64,000 nt of DNA. Origin: a virus. The first letter of the stretch is position 1; every line of letters begins with the position of its first letter. The stretch is from positions 1 through 64,000 of the IMG/VR virus record IMGVR_UViG_3300019487_000006; one strand, given 5' to 3'. The translations under genes were made by a program, and so were the position numbers. The notes beneath the pieces were generated by a model, which was given only the letters and a program-made list of their open reading frames with translations, did no database searches and was not told the DNA's origin. Shown here one piece after another: positions 805 to 51,086 of the stretch.

Positions 805-1266
805 ATGGACAAGTACGCGGGTGCCAGTATAATCATCGTTGGTCTTTTACTGTTTCTGATGGCGGCTATACTTGCTCTCAAAGAAGGCTTCCTTTACTGG
901 GATGGAATACACAAAAAGTCTTCCCCTAGTACCGTTACAGCCCCACCAGGACTCCCGATTACGATGCTGACGACCGGCTATCACTGTCCACGGGGAGCAA
1001 AACAGAAACAGTGCGATGCCCTCTTTAATGATGGCTTGACCGCAACGATGACTCCGGTGAGGCGAGGGGTATGTGCTGCCGACTGGCGAGTGTTTCCCGT
1101 CGGGACCAAATTCTATCTCCCTAGATACGGCTACTGTACCGTGCAAGACAGTGGGTCACGAATCAAACTCCTTTCCATTGACTTCTACTACGAGTTAAAC
1201 GAGGACGCGATTAAACACGGCAAACGCTTGGAGACTGTTTACCTTATTCGATGGGGGGCGGAATGA
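805..1266 (+). CDS. membrane-anchored 3D-domain (MltA/RlpA-like) cell-wall hydrolase
   Basis: N-terminal TM segment IIIVGLLLFLMAAILAL. C-terminal GVCAADWRVFPVGTKFYLPRYGYCTVQDSGSRIKLLSIDFYY carries the three conserved Asp of the 3D domain. RBS AAGGAGG lies upstream. Confidence 0.55.
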   Translation: MDKYAGASIIIVGLLLFLMAAILALKEGFLYWDGIHKKSSPSTVTAPPGLPITMLTTGYHCPRGAKQKQCDALFNDGLTATMTPVRRGVCAADWRVFPVGTKFYLPRYGYCTVQDSGSRIKLLSIDFYYELNEDAIKHGKRLETVYLIRWGAE

Positions 1267-1296
1267 TGAAACAAACTCAAATGAAGGAAAGGCGAC

Positions 1297-1452
1297 ATGG
1301 GCACCCGTGACGCATTCAATAGTTGGTTGATGTACCACAAGTCATTGACATACAGCGAGTATTCAAAGCTTGAGAGCGGCACCAAACTTGCAATCCAGGC
1401 TGAGTACCAGGGGAGAAAAAAAGTCGCGAAAGTCGTTGACACGGGCGCGTAG
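1297..1452 (+). CDS. small hypothetical protein (51 aa, below ORF-track cutoff)
   Basis: ATG 1297 follows AAGGAAAGG. Translation is MGTRDAFNSWLMYHKSLTYSEYSKLESGTKLAIQAEYQGRKKVAKVVDTGA, read by hand. Confidence 0.3.
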   Translation: MGTRDAFNSWLMYHKSLTYSEYSKLESGTKLAIQAEYQGRKKVAKVVDTGA

Positions 1453-1613
1453 AAGCGTATACTGACACTGTTTTACTTGAATGGGGAGGGCTCCTACCGT
1501 GGCGAAACCCAAAGCGTCTAATTCTCGTGTGGTCTCACTTCGGGCTATTGACGCCCGTCTCGCCGTCATCGAAAATATGCTCGTGAAAATCTACTCCACT
1601 GTGGAGAGAATCA

Positions 1614-1832
1614 ATGAACGAGAACGGGTCATCATCGACGAACCCTTTTGAGTCGTGCCGTCGGTGTCACACCGGTTGGCTGGAATTAGAGGATGTGCGT
1701 GACGAACAGGGTGACATGCGCGGGTGGCAATACCGGTGTGTGCAGTGTGGTGGACGGCAGGACTTCTCCGCACGAAAAGTGATGAGTAAGACGAAACGAA
1801 TAGGAGGGTTTCTTCGTGGCATTCACGGGTGA
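1614..1832 (+). CDS. zinc-ribbon protein
   Basis: CRRCHTGW...YRCVQCGG gives two CxxC pairs. It resembles the ORF at 24881..25192 (CYRCQG...WRCVNCG). Confidence 0.45.
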   Translation: MNENGSSSTNPFESCRRCHTGWLELEDVRDEQGDMRGWQYRCVQCGGRQDFSARKVMSKTKRIGGFLRGIHG

Positions 1833-2073
1833 CGTTGACGTTGACGAATTCACGGCAGCGGTGTGTCTGGCTCAACATGGAACGCATCACGGCGTCCCGT
1901 ACTCGTATGGTATTGGTTACTATCAATTAGTCTGTTTTCATTGTTACACCGTGAGTCCTAAATTCTTTCGTAAGATTGATCCATCAGACGGGTGGGAACG
2001 GCTTTCTCTTAAACTTGTCTCTTCAGAACAATTTTGGGAATGTGTTAGTAAAGCCAAGGACGAGCGCCGATGA
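1816..2073 (+). CDS. small C-H-C-C zinc-binding protein, family member 1
   Basis: GTG 1816 lies 7 nt after AGGAGGG. Motif DEFTAAVCLAQHGTHH...CFHC is shared with the ORFs at 11860, 12104 and 12279. Confidence 0.5.
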   Translation: MAFTGDVDVDEFTAAVCLAQHGTHHGVPYSYGIGYYQLVCFHCYTVSPKFFRKIDPSDGWERLSLKLVSSEQFWECVSKAKDERR

Positions 2074-3122
2074 TGCCCTTTTACGTCGATAATACTCAAC
2101 TCTCCGCCGTCCAGACCTGTGAAATGAAGGCAGGGTTACGCTACGTCCTTGGTCTCACTACAGGAGAGGAGCGGCTTGAGCTAGACGCCGGGACCGCTTG
2201 CCACGTTGCTCTAGCCGCGTGGCACCAAGGGCGCAGTAAATATGACGCCCTGGCGGAATTTGAGAAAATGTACCGCCCCCTTACCACTCATGTCAGTGCA
2301 GAGGAACGCCTGTCCTATCAAAATGTCCATCGCTGCCTCGACCGGTTCTTTTCGTTTTATGAACAGAACCCCATGCCGTATACCCCTCAGAAGGGATTAG
2401 TGGAGGTCGTGTTCGAGGCTCCCTTGGACGCCAATGGAGACTTTCAAATGGTCGGGCGGATTGACCTGATCGCTGCCTACAAGCAACGACTTGTGGTGTT
2501 TGAGAATAAGACCACCGGTGGGTTGAACGATTTCTGGAAGCGTCGATGGCCTATGACCAGTCAGTTGACGACGTATGTATTTGGGGCGCAGGAAGGATAC
2601 GTGAACGGTAAGCGATTGGGGCTTCCGATTGAAGAGGCCCTGGTCTTGGGTATCGAACTACGCAAAATTCCTGAAAGCACGCGCAAGTGTCCAGAACATA
2701 AACTCCCCTACAGTGAATGTGGAATGATGCACATTAAGTGGGAGTACAGCGGCCCCCATCCACGTCCTACCGGGTTCATTGAACGGTGGCGTCGGGATGC
2801 GCTGGAAGCCGCGATGAAGTTCAAATCCATTACTGAACAAGTTCATACGGTACAAGACGCAGCGGACAAGCTTCAGCAAAATGGCCAGTTTAATGACTCC
2901 TGTCGGTACTGTGAATTCAACGATTCTTGCCGACAGGGGGTGCCAGCAGATTTAATGACCGCGAATCTATTGAAGTCGCCATGGAATCCGCATGACGTGA
3001 AGCATACTGAACTGATCCAGTTGTCGAAAACGCACGCGACCCCCTCGACACATCAGGCGTCCCTCGTCGATGTGACGACTGGAAGTGCGCCGGTGCCGTC
3101 GAATGCGAAACGAGGTGAGTGA
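2070..3122 (+). CDS. PD-(D/E)XK (Cas4/RecB-like) exonuclease
   Basis: GRIDLIA...VVFENKTT...QLTTYVF core. Cys near the N-terminus (QTCEMK) plus C-terminal CRYCEFNDSC, typical of Cas4-like Fe-S nucleases. Confidence 0.7.
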   Translation: MMPFYVDNTQLSAVQTCEMKAGLRYVLGLTTGEERLELDAGTACHVALAAWHQGRSKYDALAEFEKMYRPLTTHVSAEERLSYQNVHRCLDRFFSFYEQNPMPYTPQKGLVEVVFEAPLDANGDFQMVGRIDLIAAYKQRLVVFENKTTGGLNDFWKRRWPMTSQLTTYVFGAQEGYVNGKRLGLPIEEALVLGIELRKIPESTRKCPEHKLPYSECGMMHIKWEYSGPHPRPTGFIERWRRDALEAAMKFKSITEQVHTVQDAADKLQQNGQFNDSCRYCEFNDSCRQGVPADLMTANLLKSPWNPHDVKHTELIQLSKTHATPSTHQASLVDVTTGSAPVPSNAKRGE

Positions 3123-3343
3123 TGCGTTGGGTGAGAAGAAAGATCGATATTTATCAATGGCATCGACGGTTTGCGTGGGGAATTACTGAACGGAAGCTTG
3201 ACAATTTTACGACCGAGAAATTCTGGCTCGTGTGGTTATGGTTTCGGCGTGAACAAGACCCAAAGTATGGTGGGTTAAAATGGAGCGTTAAAACTCAGGC
3301 CGAAATGGTTGCCGAATCGTTATGCCCCGAAAAGGTGAAGTGA
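3119..3343 (+). CDS. hypothetical Trp-rich protein (tandem paralog A)
   Basis: WHRRFAW...FWLVWLW...KWSVKTQAEMVAESL parallels the next ORF. Confidence 0.45.
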   Translation: MMRWVRRKIDIYQWHRRFAWGITERKLDNFTTEKFWLVWLWFRREQDPKYGGLKWSVKTQAEMVAESLCPEKVK

Positions 3344-3603
3344 TGCACTGGTATTGGAGGAAACGTGTTCAAGACCCTAAAAAATGGCATAAGACGTTTG
3401 CGTTACTTCCAAAAATGCAACGTAATAGAATAAACGGTATAAGTATACGGGAGTGTGAATTTTTTTGGTTGATGAATGTCTACCGAGCGCTGTGTACTAG
3501 AGAGACGTGTACACTAGACTCCGCTATGGAGTGTCCCAATAAATGGCACTATAAAACTCAATCCCAAATGACGGCTGACGCCTTGGAAGGACTAGATAAA
3601 TAA
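3343..3603 (+). CDS. hypothetical Trp-rich protein (tandem paralog B)
   Basis: ATG 3343 overlaps the upstream stop (GTGATG). WHKTFAL...FFWLMNV...KWHYKTQSQMTADAL parallels 3119..3343. Confidence 0.45.
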   Translation: MHWYWRKRVQDPKKWHKTFALLPKMQRNRINGISIRECEFFWLMNVYRALCTRETCTLDSAMECPNKWHYKTQSQMTADALEGLDK

Positions 3604-3604
3604 A

Positions 3605-4417
3605 ATGGCTGAACCAAAACGGCATCCTGATATTCACCTTCTATTGTACGGGGAATCTGGCAGTGGGAAATCCACATTTTGGTCCACGATGATTCGTTAT
3701 TATTCGACTAACTTTAATGAACCCTCGTTGATTCTCTCATTTGATCCATGGGATAAGGCCACCCCATACCTGGAACTCGGCACCGTCCAGAAATGCGAGG
3801 AGCAGTACTACAAGACCATCGGGTTGGAGGTGGACGATGTCGTGGACGCAAAGGGCAACCTGATAGTACGGGTGGAATATTACGCGGACCCTGACCCAGA
3901 CAACCCGACGGCGATCTCCTTATTTGAGAAACGCATGGTCGGGTTTGAAAAGGAGTGCCGAAATTGGGCCAGTGTTGGGATGGACTCGATGACCTATTTC
4001 CAGCGAGCCAGCTTATTGAAGTGGAAAAAGCTGAATCCATTGGAGTCGGTCAAGCAGCAGACCAATATCTCCTGGTATGGTGGCGTCGCAGAGGACGCTG
4101 GAGCGGCGGTCATGTCCCGCGCCGCGTGGTGGCGAACCAACGTCGGCGTGATCTGCCACATCGATGAGGCGAAAGACGACCTCGCGGACTTTGGGGTTGT
4201 TCGTAGTGTGGCGCTGGCTGGCAAGTTGTCCAAGCGTGCCCCTGCCGGATTCGGGGAAGTGTATCGAATGCGGGTGGTCGTCAGCGGGAAAGGTGAGCAA
4301 TATAAACGAGAGTTACAGACTCAAGCGGACACGCAGTGGGTGGCCAACTCGTTAGTCGCCAAGGCACCGAACCCTTGTGCTCCATCATATGAGGCGTTGT
4401 GGGGTTCGGCAAAATAG
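3605..4417 (+). CDS. AAA_24 / Sak4-like RecA-fold ATPase
   Basis: Walker A LLLYGESGSGKST. Walker B-like VGMDSMTYF. It sits between a nuclease and a DUF669-like gene, as in phage recombination modules. Confidence 0.7.
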   Translation: MAEPKRHPDIHLLLYGESGSGKSTFWSTMIRYYSTNFNEPSLILSFDPWDKATPYLELGTVQKCEEQYYKTIGLEVDDVVDAKGNLIVRVEYYADPDPDNPTAISLFEKRMVGFEKECRNWASVGMDSMTYFQRASLLKWKKLNPLESVKQQTNISWYGGVAEDAGAAVMSRAAWWRTNVGVICHIDEAKDDLADFGVVRSVALAGKLSKRAPAGFGEVYRMRVVVSGKGEQYKRELQTQADTQWVANSLVAKAPNPCAPSYEALWGSAK

Positions 4418-4624
4418 ATGTTACTCCACTGTAGTCAATGTCCTCATGAATTCGAGTCCTTTGACCGGACCATGCCCTGCGATTGGTGCGGGGCGTCAAG
4501 TTATATTATCAACGAAACCACCCCGTTTGAGAAGTGGTTGGGAACGAGGATGGAACGAGGAGGTGTCCAGGACGTTGTAGATGAATTATTGGCCCGTAAC
4601 GAGGAGCGTGAGAGTTATCCTTAA
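4418..4624 (+). CDS. zinc-ribbon protein
   Basis: CSQCPH...CDWCG. Start abuts the upstream stop. Confidence 0.45.
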   Translation: MLLHCSQCPHEFESFDRTMPCDWCGASSYIINETTPFEKWLGTRMERGGVQDVVDELLARNEERESYP

Positions 4625-4648
4625 CCATTCACCCTATAAGGAGTTGCC

Positions 4649-5284
4649 ATGTCATTACAGTTACCAGAACAAATCAAGGAGCCGTTTTCGCCGTTGCCCA
4701 TCGGAGTCTTGAAAATGCGTATCGAGGACGCCATTCGAGATATGATTGGTAACGAAAACCCCAAGTTTGGGGTGCGTGTTGCGTTGGAAGTGGAGGAGCC
4801 GTTGGATGCGGAGGGGTTGAGTGAGGAAACCGTGTTCATCTTCGGTACCGACGAGGACCCTGGAACGTTGGAGGGTGGAGTGAAGCCTGAAACTTATACC
4901 GCCAAGGCTGGCCGGTTTGCCATGTTCTGCGACGCCGCAGGGGTTGAGGCGCGTGGCAAGAACTTGGACGTCGTGTTGTCTGATCTCAAGGATCACCGGA
5001 TCAAGAGCCGCACGACCGCGACCAAGGAACCCGCCGTCGTCCAGTGGGGTAAGAACAAGGGGCAGGCAAACCCCTACGCGGGACGGTATCGAGTACGGAC
5101 CGCTCAATGGTACAGTGCGAACGAGGGACCGGCGTACGGTATTCAAACCACGGTCCGTGAGCTTGAGGCGAAGGATAACAATGGTGGAGGCACCGCCGCA
5201 TCGTCTCCATCACTTACCACCGCACAGGCTCCACCGCCCCCGGCGGCACCGAGCCCCAGGGCGGCGTTTCCTCGAACGAGGTAA
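4649..5284 (+). CDS. DUF669-like (ssDNA-binding-like) protein with Pro/Ala-rich tail
   Basis: RBS AAGGAG. N-terminal FSPLPIGVLKMRIEDA...FGVRVALEV resembles DUF669, which usually follows Sak4 genes. C-terminus is low complexity (APPPPAAPSPRA). Confidence 0.45.
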   Translation: MSLQLPEQIKEPFSPLPIGVLKMRIEDAIRDMIGNENPKFGVRVALEVEEPLDAEGLSEETVFIFGTDEDPGTLEGGVKPETYTAKAGRFAMFCDAAGVEARGKNLDVVLSDLKDHRIKSRTTATKEPAVVQWGKNKGQANPYAGRYRVRTAQWYSANEGPAYGIQTTVRELEAKDNNGGGTAASSPSLTTAQAPPPPAAPSPRAAFPRTR

Positions 5285-36961: not shown

Positions 36962-37840
36962 TCATGTCAAGCCATTGCTGTATCCTTGCAACCGAGGCGA
37001 CCGGCAGATGAGATCACCCCAGGTGATTATCTGTCCGATCATTCGCTGTTGGTTGGTCGGCTCCATGAACCCACGGAAGCGGAAATCCCACTTCTTGTGC
37101 GTATAGAACCTCCACCATTTGGTGTTCAGGAAGTACACCGTCCCGGATGGACAGTGCGAGTCGACCGTAACATCCGCTGCATTCATACGAACCGACTCGA
37201 AACCAACCTCACGCTCCGTTTCGGGCTTGTTACGCTCCGACGGCTGTGACCGTTCCCAAATACGGTTCCACAACGTTTGGGTGGTCGGCATGAGGTCGGG
37301 CTTTTCGCGCCCGATCACACAGGACCCATAGTCGTTGTTGAGCCCGGACAGGGATAAGGCTCCACCGGCGGTATTTTCAACACCCGCGAGCAGGGCATTG
37401 CCTGGGTCGCCAGCAGTTGACGACCGAGTGATGCCTCCGTATGGAACAGAGGTGGACCGTGTGACTGCGTTGCCAAGACCGTCCACATCGTTTGACCCGT
37501 TTCCCGTTCCGTCGGAGAAAATCTGGGTCGAGATATTGTCGATCATGGACAGTTCGCCGTTCTCCATCGCCGCTTCGACGAGGTCGAAGACCTGATCCGG
37601 TGAATCGTTGAGGTCGACATCGACCACGTCGAGGTTCACCGGCGCGTAGCAGAACTTCCAGTTGAAAATCATCATGGTGCTGAATTCCTTCGTGGACGTA
37701 TCAAACTCCGTCCCACGTCCATAGGACGAGGCCGGGAAGTTCGCGTACACGAACGTTTCCTGAATGTCGCGCCCACCACCGAGCTTGACGTTCTCCTTTT
37801 TACGGATATACGCCAGCAAAGGTGCTGAACCGAAAAAGTT
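36962..37840 (-). CDS. major capsid protein, exon 2
   Basis: 292 codons plus stop, beginning NFFGSAPLLAYIRKK. The track ORF has only a TTG start, no RBS, and a stop 4 codons upstream. It follows the scaffold gene. C-terminus VYFLNTKWW...FMEPTNQQ...CRSPRLQG is capsid-like. Confidence 0.65.
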   Translation of the reverse strand, partial: NFFGSAPLLAYIRKKENVKLGGGRDIQETFVYANFPASSYGRGTEFDTSTKEFSTMMIFNWKFCYAPVNLDVVDVDLNDSPDQVFDLVEAAMENGELSMIDNISTQIFSDGTGNGSNDVDGLGNAVTRSTSVPYGGITRSSTAGDPGNALLAGVENTAGGALSLSGLNNDYGSCVIGREKPDLMPTTQTLWNRIWERSQPSERNKPETEREVGFESVRMNAADVTVDSHCPSGTVYFLNTKWWRFYTHKKWDFRFRGFMEPTNQQRMIGQIITWGDLICRSPRLQGYSNGLT

Positions 37841-38100
37841 CAAATCTGTTACTTACTAACTACCGAACAGTGTGTTAGACTGTGCTCGGTAGCGGGCCGT
37901 CATTTCTGCGGCCTCTGACGGTTTGCCATCCCGTCAGGTCGGACTGTCGCATATTCACTTCATGGTTATGAAGCGAACCCCACTCACTCAGTCTCTGCAA
38001 GTGAAGGCATAGTTCATATGCCCCCTTCTTGAGGGTTGCCCTATCATCTTGGAGGGGTTTCCCCATTGATCAGAGCGGGTTTAACGTGGACAACTTACTT
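37841..38100 (-). ncRNA. group I self-splicing intron (260 nt, no ORF) in the major capsid gene
   Basis: IGS AAGTTGTCCAC (38096..38086) complements the ligated junction GTGGAT|AACTT with G.U at the 5' splice site. The intron ends in G (37841). R-like GCAGAGACUGAG (37998..37987) and S-like ACAGUCCGACC (37947..37937) can pair GACUG/CAGUC as P7. There are multiple hairpins. Confidence 0.75.
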
Positions 38101-38181
38101 ATCCACCAACCCCGGACGACGGTTCTCGTACGTCGCGGCATAGAAGGTGTTAAGGGTCTGTGTTCTCGTTGGGGCTGCCAT
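38101..38181 (-). CDS. major capsid protein, exon 1
   Basis: AAGGAGG then ATG 38181. 27 codons MAAPTRTQTLNTFYAATYENRRPGLVD. An in-frame TAA follows two codons into the intron. Confidence 0.65.
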
Positions 38182-38239
38182 AGTTCACGCCTCCTTGCGT
38201 GCTGTGCCGGGGTGACTCTATGACAGGCCCGACGAATCG

Positions 38240-39178
38240 TTAGATTCGCGGAAACTGTTCACGAAGTCCTTCCGTACCCACGGCCTCTTTGACGGTGGAC
38301 ATGACGTTCTTGAACCGATCCTCACGTTTCTCCGTTGGTTTTGGTTGATCCGTGGGTCGGCTGAACAAGCCACCATTATTACCGATTGATCCAAGAGATT
38401 CCTTTTCACGACGTTCACGGTCCGCCCGCAGTTCACTGAGTTCCTTCTCCAGTCTCGACTTGTCACTCCGCAGCGAGAGGGTTTCTCCCGCCAGTGAGAG
38501 TGGGTCGATGTTTTTGGGGTCCGCGTACTTCAAGGCTTCATCGTGCCACGCACGGGTTTCCTGGAGCTTCTCCGGTGGAAGGACACGTTCCAGGGTTTTC
38601 CACAATACGTCACTGAATGCCTTGTGCCGTTGATCCAACTGGGACGAAATCTGTTGGGCCTGCTTCTGCCCCCAATCTTCAACCGTGCGAGCGAACTGCT
38701 GCGTCCACGGTGCCAGCGCACTCTGGAAAATACGTTGTGCGGTCTGGTTGATGAGTGCGTCCTTCTCCTGCTGCGTGAGGAGTTCCACCCCTTGGGTGTT
38801 CGCCACGGCATACTGAGCCTGCTGATACGCCTGTTGCTGCATGGCTTGGGAGTTCGGTTGCTGCTGCGTCATCTGACCATTTCCACCGAACTGCTGCGGC
38901 TGTGCCCCCTGGTAACCATGCCACCACTGTTGGATCGGTTGGTTATATTTTCCATACCACTCTACGATGGGAGCCGCCTTCTGTGCCCACTCCAGGATTT
39001 CCTGGTACTTCTTGGCGTAGTCTTCATACTGCTTCTTCGTGTCGCCCAGCGACTTGCCCTGTTCACCCAACTTTTTTTCAAGCTCGGTATAACCCTTCTC
39101 GGCATCCTCCATGGTGTCGTACTTTCCAAGGAATTTGCCAGTTTTTGGGTCGCGAGCTTGTCCGTCTTTCTCAGCCAT
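38240..39178 (-). CDS. scaffolding protein (putative)
   Basis: 312 aa, charged, Gln-rich and helical, immediately upstream of the capsid gene. Confidence 0.5.
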   Translation of the reverse strand: MAEKDGQARDPKTGKFLGKYDTMEDAEKGYTELEKKLGEQGKSLGDTKKQYEDYAKKYQEILEWAQKAAPIVEWYGKYNQPIQQWWHGYQGAQPQQFGGNGQMTQQQPNSQAMQQQAYQQAQYAVANTQGVELLTQQEKDALINQTAQRIFQSALAPWTQQFARTVEDWGQKQAQQISSQLDQRHKAFSDVLWKTLERVLPPEKLQETRAWHDEALKYADPKNIDPLSLAGETLSLRSDKSRLEKELSELRADRERREKESLGSIGNNGGLFSRPTDQPKPTEKREDRFKNVMSTVKEAVGTEGLREQFPRI

Positions 39179-41281: not shown

Positions 41282-42982
41282 CTAGTTTGCTTTCTTTCTC
41301 TCAAATCCCGGAGGAGGAAAAGTCTTAAACTCCTCCTGCACATCTAGGAGAATGCGGTCCACGTCATTGAAGTCCGCCGCCTCCAAAACCATTTTTCTCG
41401 TGGCACATCCCAACATCATGAGTTTGACCATCATTTCCGCCCGTTTCTGTCTGGTTCCTGGAGCGGAAGAGCCAGGTAGTACCGCGAACCGCAAGTGACG
41501 AAAGACATCCCGACGGTCTTTATCACTGACCGGTGAACCATCGTCGTTGATGAACAGTTCCTTACGGTTTAGGATATACTCGAAGGCTTCTCCACCAGGG
41601 CCGAGCAAGTGGAACACGCGGTCTCCTGGCCAAAATTGGAGAATCCTGGCCATGAGCTTGCTCCCAACACGACCGTAAAAGTCTTCCAAGCGGGAGGCGC
41701 GGCTACGGGTCATCAGGCTGGCCCCTTCCTGAAGTCCTTCAATGGCTTGACCGGACTGCAACGAACCTGGGTGTTCTCCCAACGTGACGTCGGTGACCCC
41801 GGTCATTAACTGGGCATAGGTGAACAGGGCTTTCGCCATATTGAGCTTGTCGGCTCCAAATGAAGGGGGCGGTGTTACGGTCAGTTCCTTGTTTGCGCTG
41901 GTTTTACGAAGAATCAAGCTGTTGGTGATCTTTTGAAGGTTTGCCCACTGTGCCGGGTCCAACACATCTGAGGCACCGGTTATCAAGAGAAAATTGCTGA
42001 GAATGTGGTTGGCGACGGTACCGTCCAGTATCTCATTGAAAGAGAGTTGTAGACGCTTGAGCATCATCGGGGCACTGATCCCCCATGGGTGCTCCGGGTC
42101 AACCCCCCAATCAAACCAGTCCACTGGGAATTGTCCATCCCAATACGGGACCGGACCGTCCCACAAAACCAGGTCCTTAGTATAGATGAGCCGACGACCA
42201 TGCGGAAAATAGGGTTCCCCGTCGGCCCCGCACTGACGATCACGCAGGAATGCCTCGTAAATGTACGTCCGTGGAATGATCCGCGAGACGGACTTACGAG
42301 GCGAGGACTTCAACAGGTCCGTGACCGGTGACTTGATCGATATGCCGGACCGTTCCTTGTCACTGGTGAAGGAGACATCTTCAGACTTGATAAGCGCCCC
42401 CCGGCCAGGAAACCGGTAGACCAGTTCGTCCACCGGCTTAATCCGCTCCACAATCACGAACTCTCCCTGGTCAATCTGGGAGGATTCGTTGATCTGTGGA
42501 TCGAAGTGGACCTGGTCCTTGGTGAGGATTTCAATGCTGACGCAGTCATTGATGGCGTCGTAGCCGGTGTACATGCCGGATGACCGGCGAATGGCGGAAT
42601 TGTGGCACATGCGGTAGCTTTTGCGCTGCATGTCCTCTTCCTGCCAGACGGCGGTCATGGATTTCTCCAGTGCCGACGCCATTTTCTTAAGGCCCTGCTT
42701 ACGGTTCTCGACTCGTAGGACGGGACGGTTGTCGGTGAGCCCGGCGACCATGCGGTCGATGAACATTTGCACGAAATCGCAGGAATAATATTGGTTGCGG
42801 TCACCGGGTTTATACTGACCCCGGTAGAGTTTCAGGGCGTCCTTATCATCCTCAACTGGACAGAACTTTTTCTTGGCGTCCTCAGACTCCTCCTTGAGTT
42901 CGTTCAAATAATCCAGGACGTATTGCTCGTCCTTGGAATTCCCGGTTGAGGTTTTTGTATCAATCGCCCCAGGGAGCGACAT
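41282..42982 (-). CDS. portal protein (putative)
   Basis: 566 aa. The size fits, and it lies just downstream of TerL and upstream of scaffold and capsid. Confidence 0.55.
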   Translation of the reverse strand: MSLPGAIDTKTSTGNSKDEQYVLDYLNELKEESEDAKKKFCPVEDDKDALKLYRGQYKPGDRNQYYSCDFVQMFIDRMVAGLTDNRPVLRVENRKQGLKKMASALEKSMTAVWQEEDMQRKSYRMCHNSAIRRSSGMYTGYDAINDCVSIEILTKDQVHFDPQINESSQIDQGEFVIVERIKPVDELVYRFPGRGALIKSEDVSFTSDKERSGISIKSPVTDLLKSSPRKSVSRIIPRTYIYEAFLRDRQCGADGEPYFPHGRRLIYTKDLVLWDGPVPYWDGQFPVDWFDWGVDPEHPWGISAPMMLKRLQLSFNEILDGTVANHILSNFLLITGASDVLDPAQWANLQKITNSLILRKTSANKELTVTPPPSFGADKLNMAKALFTYAQLMTGVTDVTLGEHPGSLQSGQAIEGLQEGASLMTRSRASRLEDFYGRVGSKLMARILQFWPGDRVFHLLGPGGEAFEYILNRKELFINDDGSPVSDKDRRDVFRHLRFAVLPGSSAPGTRQKRAEMMVKLMMLGCATRKMVLEAADFNDVDRILLDVQEEFKTFPPPGFERKKAN

Positions 42983-43628: not shown

Positions 43629-45344
43629 TTACTGCGTAGATAGCACCCGGTCTACATACGACCCTAGCGTATTTGAGGAGACGCCGTCAAGTAGATCAGC
43701 GTCAATATCGTGGATCAGCCACTCCCGCCCGGTTTTCGGCTGGGTGGGCGGCAGAGGAGCGAAAATGGGGGCGCGTTCGTCGGTGGCACTCAAGACCGCC
43801 AACATCCACGCAGTGATGACGTCGTCGTGGGTTCCTGGGGCCGCCCCCCATTCATCAATCCCAATCGTCAGGAACGACCGCATTTCCTTGAGGAGTTCCC
43901 GTGAACGAATAATGGGGCGTTCGCGAATGAGGGCCTTTACTGCATTGTGGACGAGCCACGTTTTATCCCGTTTAGTGTAATAGAAGCCTAGCCTGGACGA
44001 GACCTTTTCCTGGGCGTCATCACGGCGACGCCATTGCCAGATGTTCGGGTAATTACGTTTTTGCAAGTCTGAGAGAAGGGCATGACCCCACCCGCCGGTG
44101 ATATCCGGGGTCATTTGCCCGGAGTTGTACGCACGGCCCAGCCAATAGGTGAGATTGAGGAATTCCTCGCTGGACGGGTCCATATGGAGACGCACTTCCG
44201 CCACTTGTTCCAGGGTATCGCGCCGCAACACGATAATCACCGTCCAGTCGGCTCGTTCGGTCGCGCCACCCGCCACGTCGACGCCGATATCGTAGTACAC
44301 TCCCTCCTTCGGAAGTTGCCAGACTTCAATCTCCCCGCCGATGTTCTCTTGTAAGCCGTTGGCGGTGACCACATGCCGCACGCCTGGCTTGAGGTGCGCG
44401 TGAATGTAGGTGAGATGCTCCTCCTGGAATGTTTGCATCGTGCCTTGCGGAAGTATCCACGACTCTCCCCACGAAAATGCATATTCCTGCCCAAAAAGTG
44501 CCAAGTTGGTGGAAAAGGTCGAGCGCGTCAATCGATACCACACCATATTTTCGAGGGTGAGACCACGGTATTGACGTAATAGGTCCTTCTCGAATTCCGT
44601 CAACTCAAATCCTTTGGGCACCGGTAAGCGATAATCCTGGTGCATGAACCAGGGGACGAAATGGAATTCATACTCATTTCGTTCCTTCATCGCTTCCTCG
44701 GCAAAGTCCTTGAACCAATCTCCACCGAATCTGGAGGTCGACTCGATGATGACAACACTACAGTCACGTCCAGTCGCAGACGAGATGGACGGGAATAGTG
44801 ATCCCTGGATTTCGCTGCCGTTGGGGTACCGAGCGACTTCCGTGAGATGGACGATGTGGTTCATCTGAGACGCGCCGACGTGCATGTTCCGGGCGTGGTT
44901 CACCAGGATTTTGCTGTTGCGGTTGGTGAACTCCATCTTGGACTTACTGCGGTATTTGGTCAACGGGCGTAGTTCCGACGGCAACGCATCGTAAAACCCG
45001 GTGTCCATTTGGAACATTTCCATCGCGTCGGGCTCATCATGAGCAACCACGAGCGCGTTGGTGTGATCGCGGAATGCCGTGCGGTGGAACGAGAGGGCGC
45101 GACAGTAAGTACTGCTGCCGACTTGTCGGCTTTTTCCCCAGACCTGTCTAACCTTTCCCGTACGCCGGAGTTGGTCCTGAATAGCCGCATGAAGATATTG
45201 CTGGACGTTGTTGAACTTTAACGTCGGAAAGCCGATGACATGCTTGGACTTGAACCGCAGGTAATTACGGGCGAGGTAATCGAAGTCGTCCTCGCACAGT
45301 TTCTTGATATGCGCCCAGCGGACTTGTTGAGGGGTTAGAGCCAT
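43629..45344 (-). CDS. terL: terminase large subunit
   Basis: Walker A-like WGKSRQVGSSTY. Walker B HIVHLTEVA. C-terminal RNaseH-like nuclease Asp motifs DIGVDVAGG and GTHDDVITAW. Confidence 0.85.
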   Translation of the reverse strand: MALTPQQVRWAHIKKLCEDDFDYLARNYLRFKSKHVIGFPTLKFNNVQQYLHAAIQDQLRRTGKVRQVWGKSRQVGSSTYCRALSFHRTAFRDHTNALVVAHDEPDAMEMFQMDTGFYDALPSELRPLTKYRSKSKMEFTNRNSKILVNHARNMHVGASQMNHIVHLTEVARYPNGSEIQGSLFPSISSATGRDCSVVIIESTSRFGGDWFKDFAEEAMKERNEYEFHFVPWFMHQDYRLPVPKGFELTEFEKDLLRQYRGLTLENMVWYRLTRSTFSTNLALFGQEYAFSWGESWILPQGTMQTFQEEHLTYIHAHLKPGVRHVVTANGLQENIGGEIEVWQLPKEGVYYDIGVDVAGGATERADWTVIIVLRRDTLEQVAEVRLHMDPSSEEFLNLTYWLGRAYNSGQMTPDITGGWGHALLSDLQKRNYPNIWQWRRRDDAQEKVSSRLGFYYTKRDKTWLVHNAVKALIRERPIIRSRELLKEMRSFLTIGIDEWGAAPGTHDDVITAWMLAVLSATDERAPIFAPLPPTQPKTGREWLIHDIDADLLDGVSSNTLGSYVDRVLSTQ

Positions 45345-45619
45345 CCTTGTCTCCCCTTAAACGTTCCAGTGTCCGCCGGATCGTATGATGCCTTACCTTT
45401 TCGTCCAAGTAAGACATCGACGAGGGACGGCGGTTGTTCCAGTTCTGGCTGTTCCACGGAGATGGAGGACTGAAGCACCGGTGTCTCGTCCGTCGATGTC
45501 AACAGGTCGAGAATGTACAGAACGTAGCGATATATACGGATACTGACGAACAATAACGCGGCTACGGCCAGGAGGATACATCCCAGCAGGCCGATGACGA
45601 TCCAGTCAAACATGGTCAT
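45335..45619 (-). CDS. small membrane protein
   Basis: 94 aa with N-terminal TM WIVIGLLGCILLAVAALLFVSI. Confidence 0.4.
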   Translation of the reverse strand: MTMFDWIVIGLLGCILLAVAALLFVSIRIYRYVLYILDLLTSTDETPVLQSSISVEQPELEQPPSLVDVLLGRKGKASYDPADTGTFKGRQGWL

Positions 45620-47268: not shown

Positions 47269-47685
47269 TTACCACCCCTGTTCCACTTCCTTCGCCAAGG
47301 TCTGGCTCAATACGGGGTACGGCCCCAAGAACAAGGAGACAATTTTGGCACTGTTCTGTTCCCGGTAGCTCTGTGGAGTCTTGCCACTGAAAAGATAGAA
47401 TAACGCCTCGTATTCGGCCTCCCCCACGACCAAGGCGGGCATCCCATGAATGGTTCGCATGTAAGGTTCAGGATGCGCGAAGATGTGTTCCGCCAATTCA
47501 CGCCCCATCGTGACAAGGACATCGGGGTCCCGCTGTTTAATGTTGGCATTCTCCCCGTTCTCCAGAAAACGGACGGCGAGCGTGGGGCGCTTGGTGCCTG
47601 TACGAGCGGAGGTTTTCGCTGGAATGGACCCGAACCATCGTGTCCACCAGGAATGGTTATCGTTTTTCTTTCTCGCCTGCGCCAT
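47269..47685 (-). CDS. hypothetical protein
   Basis: 138-aa ORF. Confidence 0.4.
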   Translation of the reverse strand: MAQARKKNDNHSWWTRWFGSIPAKTSARTGTKRPTLAVRFLENGENANIKQRDPDVLVTMGRELAEHIFAHPEPYMRTIHGMPALVVGEAEYEALFYLFSGKTPQSYREQNSAKIVSLFLGPYPVLSQTLAKEVEQGW

Positions 47686-48199
47686 AGGTCCAGTGTTTTC
47701 CTTTTATAATTCTACCTATCTGCTGAAAAGATACTCCAAATTGTCTAGAAAGGTCGATATATCGGACATTACCAGTAGCGTACAAAGATCGTATGGCATC
47801 AACATGTTGTCGAGTAAGTTTGGCATTGGTGGGAGTGACTCCCCATGCTCGTGATTCTGGGTGAGTGTACATACCATTTCGTTCGCCTACCGCCGTTCTT
47901 CCTTTCATGGAGGCATCACGATTATTGTCCTTCGCTGTCCCGATAAATAGGTGACTAGGATTCACGCAGCGCATATTATCACAATGATGACAAACGAATA
48001 TTCCACGAGGAATCTCACCAAAATGAAGTTGATAAGAAAAACGATGAGTGCCTATCCTTTTGCCTTTTACTTTTAATTTACCGTATTTTCCAGAAATCGT
48101 CGATCCCGTCCATTCCCAACATCCAGTGTCTTGTTTAATTACATACGACCAAAAACGTTCCACTGGAGACATTCGTCTTCGCGTATGCCATATGCTCAT
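47657..48199 (-). CDS. HNH homing endonuclease (free-standing)
   Basis: CWEWTGS...GKYGKLKV...THRFSY...VCHHCDNMRCVNPSHLFIGTAKDNNRD, with a C-terminal HTH-like LSRQFGVSFQQIGRI. Confidence 0.8.
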   Translation of the reverse strand: MSIWHTRRRMSPVERFWSYVIKQDTGCWEWTGSTISGKYGKLKVKGKRIGTHRFSYQLHFGEIPRGIFVCHHCDNMRCVNPSHLFIGTAKDNNRDASMKGRTAVGERNGMYTHPESRAWGVTPTNAKLTRQHVDAIRSLYATGNVRYIDLSRQFGVSFQQIGRIIKGKHWTYGAGEKEKR

Positions 48200-48579
48200 T
48201 TTTTCTCCTTTTGTCCTGCTCCTATCGACCCGCCTACGAAGCGTTTATCGTGGATTTCGGTGGATTTACACTTCGGACACACAAATGTCCAACATCCCTC
48301 AAATTCACGGGCCACTTTCATGATACTACGGCACCACTCACAGAGACGCACACGGCTGGGGACTGATTGAGGACCGCGTGGCCGTCTTTTAATAATATCC
48401 CACGCATGGGGGTGGATGGTCAAATACATTATCCCCACCTCCGTTGTTTTCCGCACGGCGGGACGTCCATCCGGGAGGACGGTCTTCTCGTGATTGCTCG
48501 CCTGCTTGAGCGCAAGACCGAACTGGTCGGCGCGGCACTCGACCCATAAACTGCCGTCCGATCTATGAACGCTTCTCAT
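48196..48579 (-). CDS. hypothetical protein with C-terminal zinc ribbon
   Basis: 127 aa. CEWC...CPKC. Confidence 0.4.
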   Translation of the reverse strand: MRSVHRSDGSLWVECRADQFGLALKQASNHEKTVLPDGRPAVRKTTEVGIMYLTIHPHAWDIIKRRPRGPQSVPSRVRLCEWCRSIMKVAREFEGCWTFVCPKCKSTEIHDKRFVGGSIGAGQKEKK

Positions 48580-49021
48580 TGGGAAGGTCTTCCCAGGCCC
48601 ACTTGCCGGTCCGTAGCATCATGCTGAGTTCCTTCGCACGTGGGCCGACCTGTTTGGCCCAGAGACTCAGGAGCATGTTGTCGGCGGCTTTGTCATACTG
48701 ACCGTTTCGAATGAACGTCAGGGTGTTGACAAACGTCAGGAGGCGGTCGATTCCCAGATTGAATGCCATACTGAGCACGACTGCTTGTCTCACTTCATCG
48801 AGCTTGGTCCACCATGGAATAGCGCGGGTGAGGTCGTTCCGGGTGCGTTCAATGTCGTTGGTCAATAACATCATCGCCTCGTCGTGCGAGAGACCGATGT
48901 CGGTGAGATTCCTGCCGATTCCTATTGAAATTTTCCCTTTAATAGTACTCCCAGCAGTAACTTGCTCTCCTGTGAGGTCATCATAAGGAAACGTTCTCAA
49001 CCCTTCATGTTTTATTAGCAT
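48563..49021 (-). CDS. T4-type lysozyme (GH24 endolysin)
   Basis: MLIKHEGLRTFPYDD...ISIGIGRNL supplies the catalytic Glu, Asp and Thr. The track ORF extends to GTG 49093 and GTG 49054 is also possible, so the start is uncertain. Confidence 0.8.
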   Translation of the reverse strand: MLIKHEGLRTFPYDDLTGEQVTAGSTIKGKISIGIGRNLTDIGLSHDEAMMLLTNDIERTRNDLTRAIPWWTKLDEVRQAVVLSMAFNLGIDRLLTFVNTLTFIRNGQYDKAADNMLLSLWAKQVGPRAKELSMMLRTGKWAWEDLPNEKRS

Positions 49022-49046
49022 CTCGACTAGAGGGTTTTCTAAAAAA

Positions 49047-49559
49047 TTACCCACGATAAACCTCACGACGACAGGCACGACACAATCGCCCACCTGTTTT
49101 ACTTACATATGTATTAACAGAATCGAACACATGTCCTCGTTTACAGTGAGTTTTATTTTTATTTCTTGGCTGGCGAGATTTCCAAATAGTCAGCGCGTTT
49201 GTGATTTGTCCTTTTCTGCGAGGAGACATCAAAGTAAAAATGGTCAACATAAGGGCAGCCGCGTGCGAACCAACCAAGGTCCATCTCCATATTGGTTGTC
49301 CTCTATCTCTTTCACTTCCACTTCGTGGACGAAGATAAAGATACCCACCGAAGGTTGAGTGAAGTATGTCTAGAGGCCATTTTTGTACTTGGCAAGCCTC
49401 CACACTCGGACTTGATCCTGTTCCAGCAGACATGCGAAACGATCCTTCACCTTCCAAGAAACCAGCCACCCAACGAAAATCTTTTAAGGATAATCCACTA
49501 ACGGGCTTGGCAGCCTCAACCCTCAATGTACTTTTTTCGTTATTCATCAGGGTGCTCAT
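49047..49559 (-). CDS. LAGLIDADG homing endonuclease with C-terminal C-GH-C-C zinc-finger module (free-standing)
   Basis: WVAGFLEGEGSF. C-terminal HCKRGHVFDSVNTYVSKTGGRLCRACRRE matches the repeats of the HNH protein at 50457..51086. Start uncertain (49559, 49547 or 49655). Confidence 0.7.
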   Translation of the reverse strand: MSTLMNNEKSTLRVEAAKPVSGLSLKDFRWVAGFLEGEGSFRMSAGTGSSPSVEACQVQKWPLDILHSTFGGYLYLRPRSGSERDRGQPIWRWTLVGSHAAALMLTIFTLMSPRRKGQITNALTIWKSRQPRNKNKTHCKRGHVFDSVNTYVSKTGGRLCRACRREVYRG

Positions 49560-50274: not shown

Positions 50275-50460
50275 TTAACGTACCTCGTATCTCCCTCGAC
50301 TGTCAAGTAAATAGAAACATCTCCACGAGTTGCCGAACGTCAAGGCCCAAATCAAGAAGTTTAGGATTCGTAACATGTCCTCATGTCCCACGTCATTGTC
50401 GTGTATATGAACTACATTAACCCATACACCTGACAATGTCTTATTAGTTGATTCGTTCAT
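50275..50460 (-). CDS. hypothetical protein
   Basis: 61 aa. The start overlaps the HNH stop (ATGA). Confidence 0.35.
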   Translation of the reverse strand: MNESTNKTLSGVWVNVVHIHDNDVGHEDMLRILNFLIWALTFGNSWRCFYLLDSRGRYEVR

Positions 50461-51086
50461 TTATTCTTTCTCTTGTAGCGTTTCGACTGTTCATTATTAC
50501 AAACAATACAGTACGAATCACCGGTCTTGGGAATGATTCGTCGATTTCCTTCATACGGATGTCCATGAACACAAACAGTTTTAATAGTACGTTCCTTTCG
50601 ACGCATTAGTTTCCTCTTAACTTTCTCTCTAATACACACACGGCAACGTATTCTTCCATTACTCAAAATTTTTATAGTTTCCGTAGTTCTACGATGACCA
50701 TTTCGACAAAATAACGAACGCCAAACACCATATGGTTTTTGAGAAATACCAGCAAAATATCTTCTCACGTTCTCTTGAGATGTAACCGGTTCTAAATGAT
50801 CTGGATTAACACATAATGTTGTCGAACATAAATGATCCAATACTAAACCATCTGGAATTGGTCCTTTCATCTGTTCATAGAAGAATCTATGAGATTTCAC
50901 GCACTTCTTATTTACAACAAGACAACCATAAAATGGTCTCGCTCGTTTTGTCTCTGTGGTGTGATGACCTGTCGTGCTGCCCTGCCAAATCCAACATCCA
51001 CTCACTCCATCAGGAAATTTTACTCTCCCCACCAAGCGATATAGTGACTCTGGTAAATCCGGGATAATCATACTTAATACCCCCAT
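50457..51086 (-). CDS. HNH homing endonuclease with two C-GH-C-C zinc-finger repeats (free-standing)
   Basis: CWIWQGS...SHRFFY...VLDHLCSTTLCVNPDHLEPVTSQEN. Repeats CRNGHRR...GRIRCRVC and CVHGHPY...GDSYCIVC. Confidence 0.8.
   Translation of the reverse strand: MGVLSMIIPDLPESLYRLVGRVKFPDGVSGCWIWQGSTTGHHTTETKRARPFYGCLVVNKKCVKSHRFFYEQMKGPIPDGLVLDHLCSTTLCVNPDHLEPVTSQENVRRYFAGISQKPYGVWRSLFCRNGHRRTTETIKILSNGRIRCRVCIREKVKRKLMRRKERTIKTVCVHGHPYEGNRRIIPKTGDSYCIVCNNEQSKRYKRKNK

Follow-up and report, generated by a model that had tools for sequence, protein, structure and literature searches.

The capsid locus

The window analysed here is a stretch of 64,000 nucleotides (nt) of viral DNA, positions 1 to 64,000 of the IMG/VR virus record IMGVR_UViG_3300019487_000006, in which the gene for the major capsid protein lies on the minus strand and is divided by 260 nt that very probably constitute a functional group I self-splicing intron. 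The parts of the divided gene are listed below; positions inside the insert (intron nt) are counted as 38101 minus the window coordinate.

38190..38196, minus strand: ribosome-binding site (RBS) AAGGAGG of the capsid gene, read from the sequence, 8 nt 5' of the ATG at 38181
38101..38181, minus strand: exon 1, ATG plus 26 codons, MAAPTRTQTLNTFYAATYENRRPGLVD, matching the N-termini of intron-less homologues without gaps
37841..38100, minus strand: the probable group I intron, 260 nt, an exact insertion relative to homologues
36962..37840, minus strand: exon 2, 292 codons plus stop, NFFGSAPLL...GLT, with no start codon or RBS of its own

Read on the minus strand, the gene opens as the first-pass annotation had described it, with the RBS, the ATG and a capsid-like start that soon meets a TAA. 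The 27 codons of exon 1 are followed by AAG TAA, which closes an open reading frame (ORF) of 28 amino acids (aa) at 38095..38181. The insert opens with AAGTAAGTTGTCCAC, so that this stop lies in frame as UAA at intron nt 4-6, and its last base is G. The long downstream ORF (36962..37843, 293 aa) was confirmed to have a fortuitous TTG as its only start and a TAA four codons upstream. Joining 38101 to 37840 yields a protein of 319 aa, and the predicted ligated RNA junction is ...GGUGGAU|AACUUUUUC....

In what follows L-numbers denote viral contig loci and P-numbers capsid homologue proteins. In the public gene call on the source contig (L123, ena:ERZ27251177:k141_1478234) the capsid protein is cut to 237 aa (P0013), and a 564-nt hole at 2437-3000 leaves exon 1 and the intron unannotated. 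The truncated P0013 protein is present on three contigs from different source collections.

Capsid identity and exactness of the insertion

Residues 7-313 of the predicted 319-aa spliced product align with the PHROG 9953 profile, 'major head protein' (E = 1.9e-43). A search of a large protein collection returned about 100 intron-less homologues of 315-322 aa, with identities of up to about 81%, and the spliced product is colinear with them. The capsid genes of Myxococcus phages Mx8 and Mx9, among others, are distant and also align as single uninterrupted pieces. The two parts therefore correspond to one protein and not to independent genes. In an alignment of 17 homologues (41-82% identity) the region ...NRRPGLVD-NFFGSAPLLAY... 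is ungapped, with no extra residue at the junction and with D27 invariant. Since the homologues are ungapped at this point, 38100..37841 is an exact 260-nt insertion. The corresponding intron-less target in relatives, for example in the genes of P0001 and P0005, is GGUGGAUAACUUUUUC. An AA dinucleotide is repeated at both ends of the insert, so that on sequence alone the junction is free to slide by 0 to +2 nt; U as the last base of exon 1 and G as the last base of the insert are obtained in register 0 only.

No intron was found at the same site in 79 related capsid loci, and the close capsid relatives in viral contigs are uninterrupted. Four homologues that are short at the N-terminus (P0063, P0067, P0069 and P0070) were considered as possible calls of exon 2 only and were rejected, as all of them read through the junction. 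In the phage collection nothing matched the locus by megablast or the intron by blastn. Two more distant capsid relatives (30-34% identity), in L074 and L054, match the protein only from residue 73-86 onwards, and directly upstream of the protein match in each lies a weaker match to the covariance model of the intron family described below (L074:1358-1481, 28.1 bits; L054:1270-1482, 19.4 bits). This suggests introns at a second position within the capsid family of the window.

Predicted splice sites and internal guide

The first-pass annotation had pointed to an 11-mer, AAGTTGTCCAC, that matches the reverse complement of GTGGAT|AACTT except for a single G.U pair facing the final exon base, and this is correct. 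The last six bases of exon 1, GUGGAU (38106..38101), form the 5' strand of P1 and pair with GUCCAC over 6 base pairs (bp), the final U lying in a terminal U.G wobble at the 5' splice site. The first five bases of exon 2, AACUU, pair with AAGUU of the guide as a 5-bp P10 contiguous with P1. A P1 with a U.G pair and an adjacent P10, at the junction fixed by the homologues, arose in 94 of 300,000 shuffled introns (about 3e-4), so the proposed P1/P10 arrangement stands above chance.

Related elements in other genomes have guides that co-vary with their exons, and joining the exons at the sites so defined restores the reading frame in different host genes. A P1 with U.G, in varied sequences, is seen in 24 of 27 family entries, being unreliable for three of these (L008, L013 and L014), and P10 measures 3-8 bp in relatives with clear junctions. 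Examples are given below as exon 1 end / guide, length of P10 and protein junction.

L001, L007, L010, L022: CAUCCCU / GGGGAUG; P10 5-7 bp; ...(G/T)FIP-EIWS(A/G)KL... (L001, L007, L010); in L022 the 3' splice site was set one base off by the script
L006, L027, L032: (U)AUCCCU / GGGGAU(A/G); P10 5-8 bp; ...(Y/F)IP-E(I/V)WG...
L038: GUUCUCCU / GGGAGAGU; P10 6 bp; ...SSP-TLWAK...
L043: CGAAGGU / GCCUUCG; P10 5 bp; ...IIPK-VFDQ...

The junctions of the L001 and L006 types represent one common site, ...(F/Y)IP|E(I/V)W(S/G)..., near the N-terminus of a capsid-like family distinct from that of the window. The intron family thus looks specialised for the 5' ends of capsid genes.

Predicted architecture of the intron

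The predicted elements of the intron are listed in the order in which they would be transcribed.

38086..38096, minus strand: internal guide AAGUUGUCCAC; nt 5-9 form P10 with exon 2 and nt 10-15 form P1 with exon 1
38073..38079, minus strand: P3 5' strand CCCGCUC, nt 22-28, preceded by a conserved A-rich J1/3 (GUUAAA)
38072..38065, minus strand: J3/4, 8 nt, UGAUCAAU, conserved in the family
38032..38064, minus strand: P4-P5 domain, placed by the covariation alignment; P4 is GGGG/CCCU (nt 37-40 / 66-69) with J4/5 AAA, and P5 is CCCU/AGGG (nt 45-48 / 59-62) with J5/4 CAA
37999..38030, minus strand: P6 AAG/CUU (nt 71-73 / 100-102) and P6a hairpin (nt 76-98)
37979..37995, minus strand: R-like element; P7 5' strand (G, bulged A, GACUG; nt 106-112), J7/3, and P3 3' strand GAGUGGG (nt 116-122)
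37956..37975, minus strand: P8 hairpin, nt 126-145, which forms in 20/20 members with unrelated sequences
37941..37955, minus strand: S-like element; J8/7 AAUAUGCGA (nt 146-154) and P7 3' strand CAGUCC (nt 155-160)
37860..37937, minus strand: 3' peripheral domain; P9 (nt 164-186), P9.1 (nt 188-206, capped by CA-GAAA-UG with a bulged A) and P9.2 (nt 209-241)
37841..37852, minus strand: 3' tail; GUAACA (37852..37847), GAUUU and the terminal omega-G at 37841

The crossing of P3 and P7 makes a pseudoknot. P2 is absent, as are P7.1 and P7.2, whereas P9.1 and P9.2 are present. Most of the elements named from the single sequence have been retained in this model: the terminal G and the elements GCAGAGACTGAG and ACAGTCCGACC are present, and the R-like and S-like elements do pair as P7. 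The proposed hairpin GGGGAAACCCC did not survive, its pairing across the family being no better than in shuffles or in a slid register and showing no covariation; its GGGG is instead the 5' strand of P4 and its CCCU the 5' strand of P5.

Most of the family members examined finish alike at the 3' end, with GUAACA or something close to it, a few further bases and then a terminal G. No pairing partner consistent across members was found by inspection for this GUAACA or for the J3/4 consensus UGAUYAAU. A 7-mer, AGUAAGU, occurring near both intron ends was considered as a target-site duplication and rejected, as by our own estimate a sequence of 260 nt should contain about two repeats of this kind by chance. 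The largest ORF inside the intron, at 37875..38066 on the minus strand, encodes 63 aa and is too short for an endonuclease; no homing endonuclease ORF was found in the intron. Such ORFs are frequent but not obligatory in group I introns, and many are ORF-less, so that its absence does not tell against the assignment. The 63-aa ORF (...QRLSE...MRQSD...) is read in the frame that the endonucleases of L001-type relatives use for their C-terminal tails. It is most simply seen as a by-product of the conserved RNA core, and it could be the relic of a lost ORF.

Covariation supports the fold

The hand-drawn structure model of the window intron was projected onto the columns of an alignment (A2) of 20 distinct cores, from which P6 insertions had been removed and which was made with MAFFT without structural input. 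Over all helices, 81.7% of cells in A2 are paired, against 35-51% when the 3' partners are slid by one to three columns, and neither the pairing nor the covariation score was reached by any of 500 shuffles. The individual helices were as follows.

P3: 7/7 pairs compensatory; 100% of cells paired
P4: no compensatory pairs, nearly invariant; 98.8% of cells paired
P5: 4/4 pairs compensatory; 84.8% of cells paired
P6: 3/3 pairs compensatory; 96.7% of cells paired
P7: 2/6 pairs compensatory, the rest invariant; 100% of cells paired
P9.1: 6/7 pairs compensatory; 85.9% of cells paired

The two covarying pairs of P7, 106-160 and 112-155, switch independently from G-C to A-U. Between them, the G108-C159 pair is invariant in all 20 members and is preceded by an unpaired base (A or C) and the covarying closing pair 106-160; by analogy with other group I introns G108-C159 would be the guanosine-binding site. 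P9 scored low in A2 because MAFFT had shifted its 3' strand by one column. When the anchored segments were folded singly, 19 of 20 minimum-energy folds contained a P9 hairpin, generally bearing a GNRA loop, and in the exception, L030, complementary arms are visible by eye. All of the positions that are invariant across the 20-member alignment are intact in the window intron and its helices are fully paired. Compared with shuffled sequences, the sense strand folds with z = -4.96 and the antisense strand with z = -2.44.

A family of related elements

The relatives of the intron were collected from viral contigs by two pattern scans. The first used two core elements with a variable spacer (GCAGAGACTGAG...ACAGTCCGAC) and gave 23 loci, where by our own estimate fewer than one was expected by chance; the second used a 5' block (TGATYAATGGGGAA...AACCCTCAA) with P7 unconstrained and gave 24 loci, 20 of them new. 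Together the scans found 43 loci, about 30 of which are distinct, and the likeness among them extends well past the search patterns. From the 5' side the common order is an A-rich J1/3, P3, UGAUYAAU, GGGG-AA(A), P5, (C/U)AA-CCCU-C and P6; this continues with GCA-R-N-GACUR-AG, P3', P8, (A/G)(A/U)GCGA-YAGUCY, P9, P9.1, a variable region, GUAACA, a few bases and G. The nearest relative over the core is L013, which is 72% identical to the window intron. A scan of species-representative genomes returned only five contigs from metagenome-assembled genomes and gave no host information.

The family includes compact members of 220-260 nt, among them the window intron, L003, L017, L018 and L031. Many other relatives carry an insertion of 0.3-0.7 kb in P6, which in those examined holds a LAGLIDADG-type ORF (YLAGLFDGEGC...); the ORFs of L001 and L013 match phrog_5046 (E = 9e-22 and 5e-25, respectively). 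In some members this ORF shares the strand of the intron and can continue into the core; in others it is encoded on the opposite strand. In L008, L013 and L014 it is opposite to the intron, as has been reported for the LittleE capsid-gene intron (PMC3706429).

Two loci have unusual features. In L026 there are about eight group I-like matches to the family model within about 4 kb of the minus strand (1149-5073), which makes this locus unusually intron-dense. The family member lies at 2344-2516 and Rfam also calls three of the approximately eight matches. The others are as follows.

L026, 1149-1321, 1414-1497, 2597-2792, 3275-3360, 4191-4367, 4439-4638 and 4900-5073, minus strand: family-model matches

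L016:8026-8376 contains a full core (137.8 bits) with no recognisable P1 with U.G and with the GUAACA 3' motif absent. An additional perfect hairpin, UCUACA-GUAA-UGUAGA, precedes J1/3, and this member may carry a P2-like addition or be a degenerate copy.

Relation to accepted group I introns

The covariance model built from the intron family (R1; 155 positions) finds a single copy in the window, at 38085..37891, with 108.4 bits and E = 5e-24. A second candidate, at 45321-45356 beside a 272-nt gap between ORFs (6.7 bits), was rejected as a chance match; it falls on the start of the terminase ORF, covering its RBS and ATG, and the gap is occupied by a small ORF. When Rfam Intron_gpI was run on nine loci at its gathering score it called five other introns (54-92 bits) and no family members. 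Of these five, R1 in turn detects four, one in L031 (60.4 bits) and three in L026 (36.5, 31.5 and 29.7 bits), while the fifth, in L018, scores only 9.3 bits. R1 also matches the 265-bp tail-gene intron of mycobacteriophage BAKA (43 bits, E = 3.9e-10), which has the same arrangement of P9 and P9.1 and which is known from reverse transcription PCR (RT-PCR) to splice in vivo (PMC3706429). These matches relate the family to curated and validated group I introns.

The cluster J mycobacteriophages offer the closest comparison. An ORF-less 265-bp intron lies in the tail gene of BAKA and Optimus (Pope et al. 2013, PMC3706429), the capsid-gene intron of LittleE carries a LAGLIDADG ORF on the bottom strand, and a capsid-gene intron of Tuc2009 is cited in the same work (PMC3706429). 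Like the window intron, the cluster J introns are compact and interrupt genes for virion structural proteins, with U as the last base of exon 1 and G as that of the intron; versions with and without a LAGLIDADG ORF have a common core, and free-standing HNH genes are found in the same genomes. The BAKA intron also has P9 together with a P9.1 of GGCAGAAAUGACC, and it falls below the Rfam gathering score just as the window intron does. It is nevertheless distant: there is no blastn match, its R1 score of 43 bits compares with 102-138 for compact family members, four bases of the long J3/4 block are absent and its P4 is different. Host gene, insertion site and presumably host phylum differ between cluster J and the window. 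In addition, splicing has been proven for BAKA and LittleE by RT-PCR and N-terminal sequencing, whereas for the window intron it is inferred.

In its general plan the window intron agrees with RF00028, having the same order of P3, J3/4, P4, J4/5, P5, J5/4, P4', P6, J6/7, P7, P3', P8, J8/7, P7' and P9. The junction consensus sequences of RF00028 (AAUUGCGGgAAA, GUUCAaAGACUAAA and AAGAUAUAGUC) are similar to those of the window intron (AAUGGGGAAA, UUGCAGAGACUGAG and AUAUGCGACAGUC). It differs from RF00028 in its 4-bp P4, 8-nt J3/4, 9-nt J8/7, lack of P2 and its P9.1/P9.2 extension. The classical phage introns (T4 td, nrdB and nrdD, SPO1 DNA polymerase, Twort orf142) likewise self-splice from protein-coding genes, have a stop codon early in the intron and are often mobile by virtue of a homing endonuclease encoded in a peripheral loop. 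They differ in residing mostly in genes for nucleotide metabolism or replication and in carrying GIY-YIG or HNH endonucleases. They belong to subgroup IA and have P7.1/P7.2 insertions, which are absent from the window intron.

Other comparisons can be made by description only. In the Jug phages, which are huge phages of the gut, 136 of 139 curated genomes have essential genes divided by short group I introns, of which there are 2,513 in total; these were found by comparative genomics with subtype-specific covariance models and many are backed by metatranscriptome reads (PMC12880540). The introns of the Jug phages and Tuc2009 resemble that of the window in being small (about 200-260 nt) and in splitting essential late genes such as terL and the capsid gene.

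Endonucleases and genome context

The capsid gene is part of a normal, intact head module, and three free-standing endonuclease genes are found elsewhere in the window.

41285-42982: P22-like portal (PF16510)
43632-45344: terminase large subunit (phrog_2)
47657-48199, minus strand: free-standing HNH_3 (PF13392), E = 1.7e-10
48566-49093: phage lysozyme (PF00959), flanked by the two HNH_3 genes
about 49050-49540, minus strand: free-standing LAGLIDADG-like ORF, phrog_5046 (E = 1.9e-13), no Pfam match
50457-51086, minus strand: free-standing HNH_3 (PF13392), E = 5.3e-12

A 312-aa ORF directly upstream of the split capsid gene matched no family and is presumably the scaffold protein. The LAGLIDADG-like ORF, which has a single motif, FRWVAGFLEGEGSF, and a C-terminal Cys/His cluster, lies between a 217-aa ORF and the phage lysozyme gene and belongs to the same phrog_5046 as the P6-borne ORFs of L001 and L013. 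The first-pass annotation had held that the intron has no homing endonuclease ORF and that three free-standing ones are near it. The former is upheld and the three genes are real, but they are 9.5-13 kb from the intron.

Alternative explanations

The exact insertion, the covariation of the fold and the matches of R1 bear out the original proposal of a compact, ORF-less group I intron in the major capsid gene, and it is very likely that the 260 nt function as such. Several observations weigh against this. Rfam 15 gave no match over the whole window at gathering scores, and RF00028 Intron_gpI gave none in 37700-38250 even at E <= 10. P4 has only 4 bp and does not covary, P9.2 was drawn from single-sequence folding alone, and the unusually long and conserved J3/4 (UGAUYAAU; 8 nt, where about 3 nt is usual) is unexplained. 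Automatic assignment of P1 and the 3' splice site failed or was ambiguous for about a dozen members; L008, L013, L014, L016, L017, L019, L025, L026, L028, L034, L037 and L040 were left out of the supporting evidence. An intron at precisely this site was found in no other genome, and homing into it is therefore undocumented. The source is a metagenome assembly, from which both splicing and the viability of the phage are inferred. The silence of Rfam may be given little weight. The first-pass annotation had proposed the Rfam group I model as a check in which a negative would tell against an intron, and this check does not discriminate: the validated BAKA intron scored 28.6 bits against a gathering score of 50 and so also falls below the threshold. 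We regard the negative as a limit of sensitivity and not as an exclusion.

The rival that deserves most attention, though it is improbable, accepts group I descent and holds that splicing has been lost or become too poor, the capsid gene being a pseudogene in a defective or decaying phage. It draws on the source being an assembled metagenome contig, on an endonuclease ORF that was lost from the window intron or never present in it, and on a nearest relative merely 72% identical over the core. Decay is hard to reconcile with the intact invariant positions, the fully paired helices and a P1 and P10 that fit the exons of this very gene. Furthermore, neither exon contains a stop or a frameshift, and both share 76-81% identity with the nearest intact homologues (P0001-P0012), which speaks for purifying selection acting on the product of splicing. 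The surrounding head module is intact as well. Much less probable again is that the insert is some other structured element, whether a group II fragment, an IStron-like or MITE-like element or an unrelated ribozyme. The silence of the Rfam group I model would suit such an element, and an intron start of GUAAGU is formally possible if the junction is slid by +2. At 260 nt the insert is far too short for a group II intron, however, no Rfam family of any kind matches it, no terminal inverted repeats were seen, and the sole repeat at the junction is the AA dinucleotide. None of these elements would account for a group I topology with covariation or for the matches of R1 to curated group I introns.

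The two readings that do without an intron altogether are scarcely credible. Ribosomes might bypass the 260 nt without any RNA splicing, as they do at the 50-nt gap of T4 gene 60, and indeed the take-off region is soon followed by a stop codon, with a GAT 5 nt ahead of exon 2. Known translational bypasses span about 50 nt, and the present gap is roughly five times that length. Ribosomes landing at this downstream GAT would insert an additional leucine, which is absent from every homologue, and bypassing leaves unexplained a conserved ribozyme-like fold that is common to endonuclease-carrying relatives in other genes. As for two independent genes or an assembly artefact, which we judge equally far-fetched, the gene caller did annotate only the 237-aa downstream fragment. 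Against this, the homologues are single proteins that span both parts ungapped, exon 2 lacks a start codon and RBS, and the truncated protein recurs on contigs of different source collections; nor would a chimeric join create a covarying ribozyme fold with a guide that matches both flanks. An intein was also considered and rejected.

Proposed mechanism and significance

A functional group I intron at this site would be expected to act by the following steps, drawn from established group I chemistry. The pre-mRNA would fold into a core of P3-P8 and P4-P6, and the guide AAGUUGUCCAC would pair with the end of exon 1 as P1, with a U.G wobble at the 5' splice site. An exogenous guanosine bound at G108-C159 of P7 would then attack after U(-1). 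The terminal G260 would replace the guanosine in its site while P10 aligns exon 2, and ligation would give GAU|AAC and hence one mRNA for a 319-aa capsid protein. On unspliced RNA, the UAA at intron nt 4-6 would release ribosomes before they enter the core. This particular copy would probably splice, and with an efficiency sufficient for a capsid gene.

The window intron is best regarded as one of the ORF-less members of a mobile family, with a guide adapted to a site other than the 'IP|EIW' capsid site of many of its relatives. A more ambitious reading, which we put forward only as speculation, is that of a coherent, unmodelled group I lineage that is specialised in the 5' ends of phage major capsid genes and escapes Rfam. 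The copy in the window would then have jumped to a new capsid family and site, with retuning of the guide and loss of the endonuclease, and the free-standing endonuclease of that family 11 kb away might mobilise it in trans. The features of such a lineage may include the absence of P2, an 8-nt J3/4 UGAUYAAU, a 4-bp P4, a GAAA-capped P9.1 with a bulged A, GUAACA and a phrog_5046 endonuclease in P6.

Group I introns in capsid genes have already been published and the window intron is not a surprise in that respect. As such introns and intron-rich phages are both established (PMC3706429, PMC12880540), current understanding is unchanged. The case is modestly interesting for its invisibility to Rfam, for the concentration of the family in capsid genes, for a guide retuned to a second capsid family and for the unexplained J3/4 and GUAACA. 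Introns of this family are probably under-called in viral metagenomes, since Rfam would not flag them. Such under-calling damages capsid-based classification of phages and protein clustering, the most abundant structural protein being truncated here. For the biology of these phages, the window intron would add a case in which an essential and very highly expressed late gene depends on ribozyme splicing, within a family whose guide has been retuned to at least two unrelated families of capsid genes.

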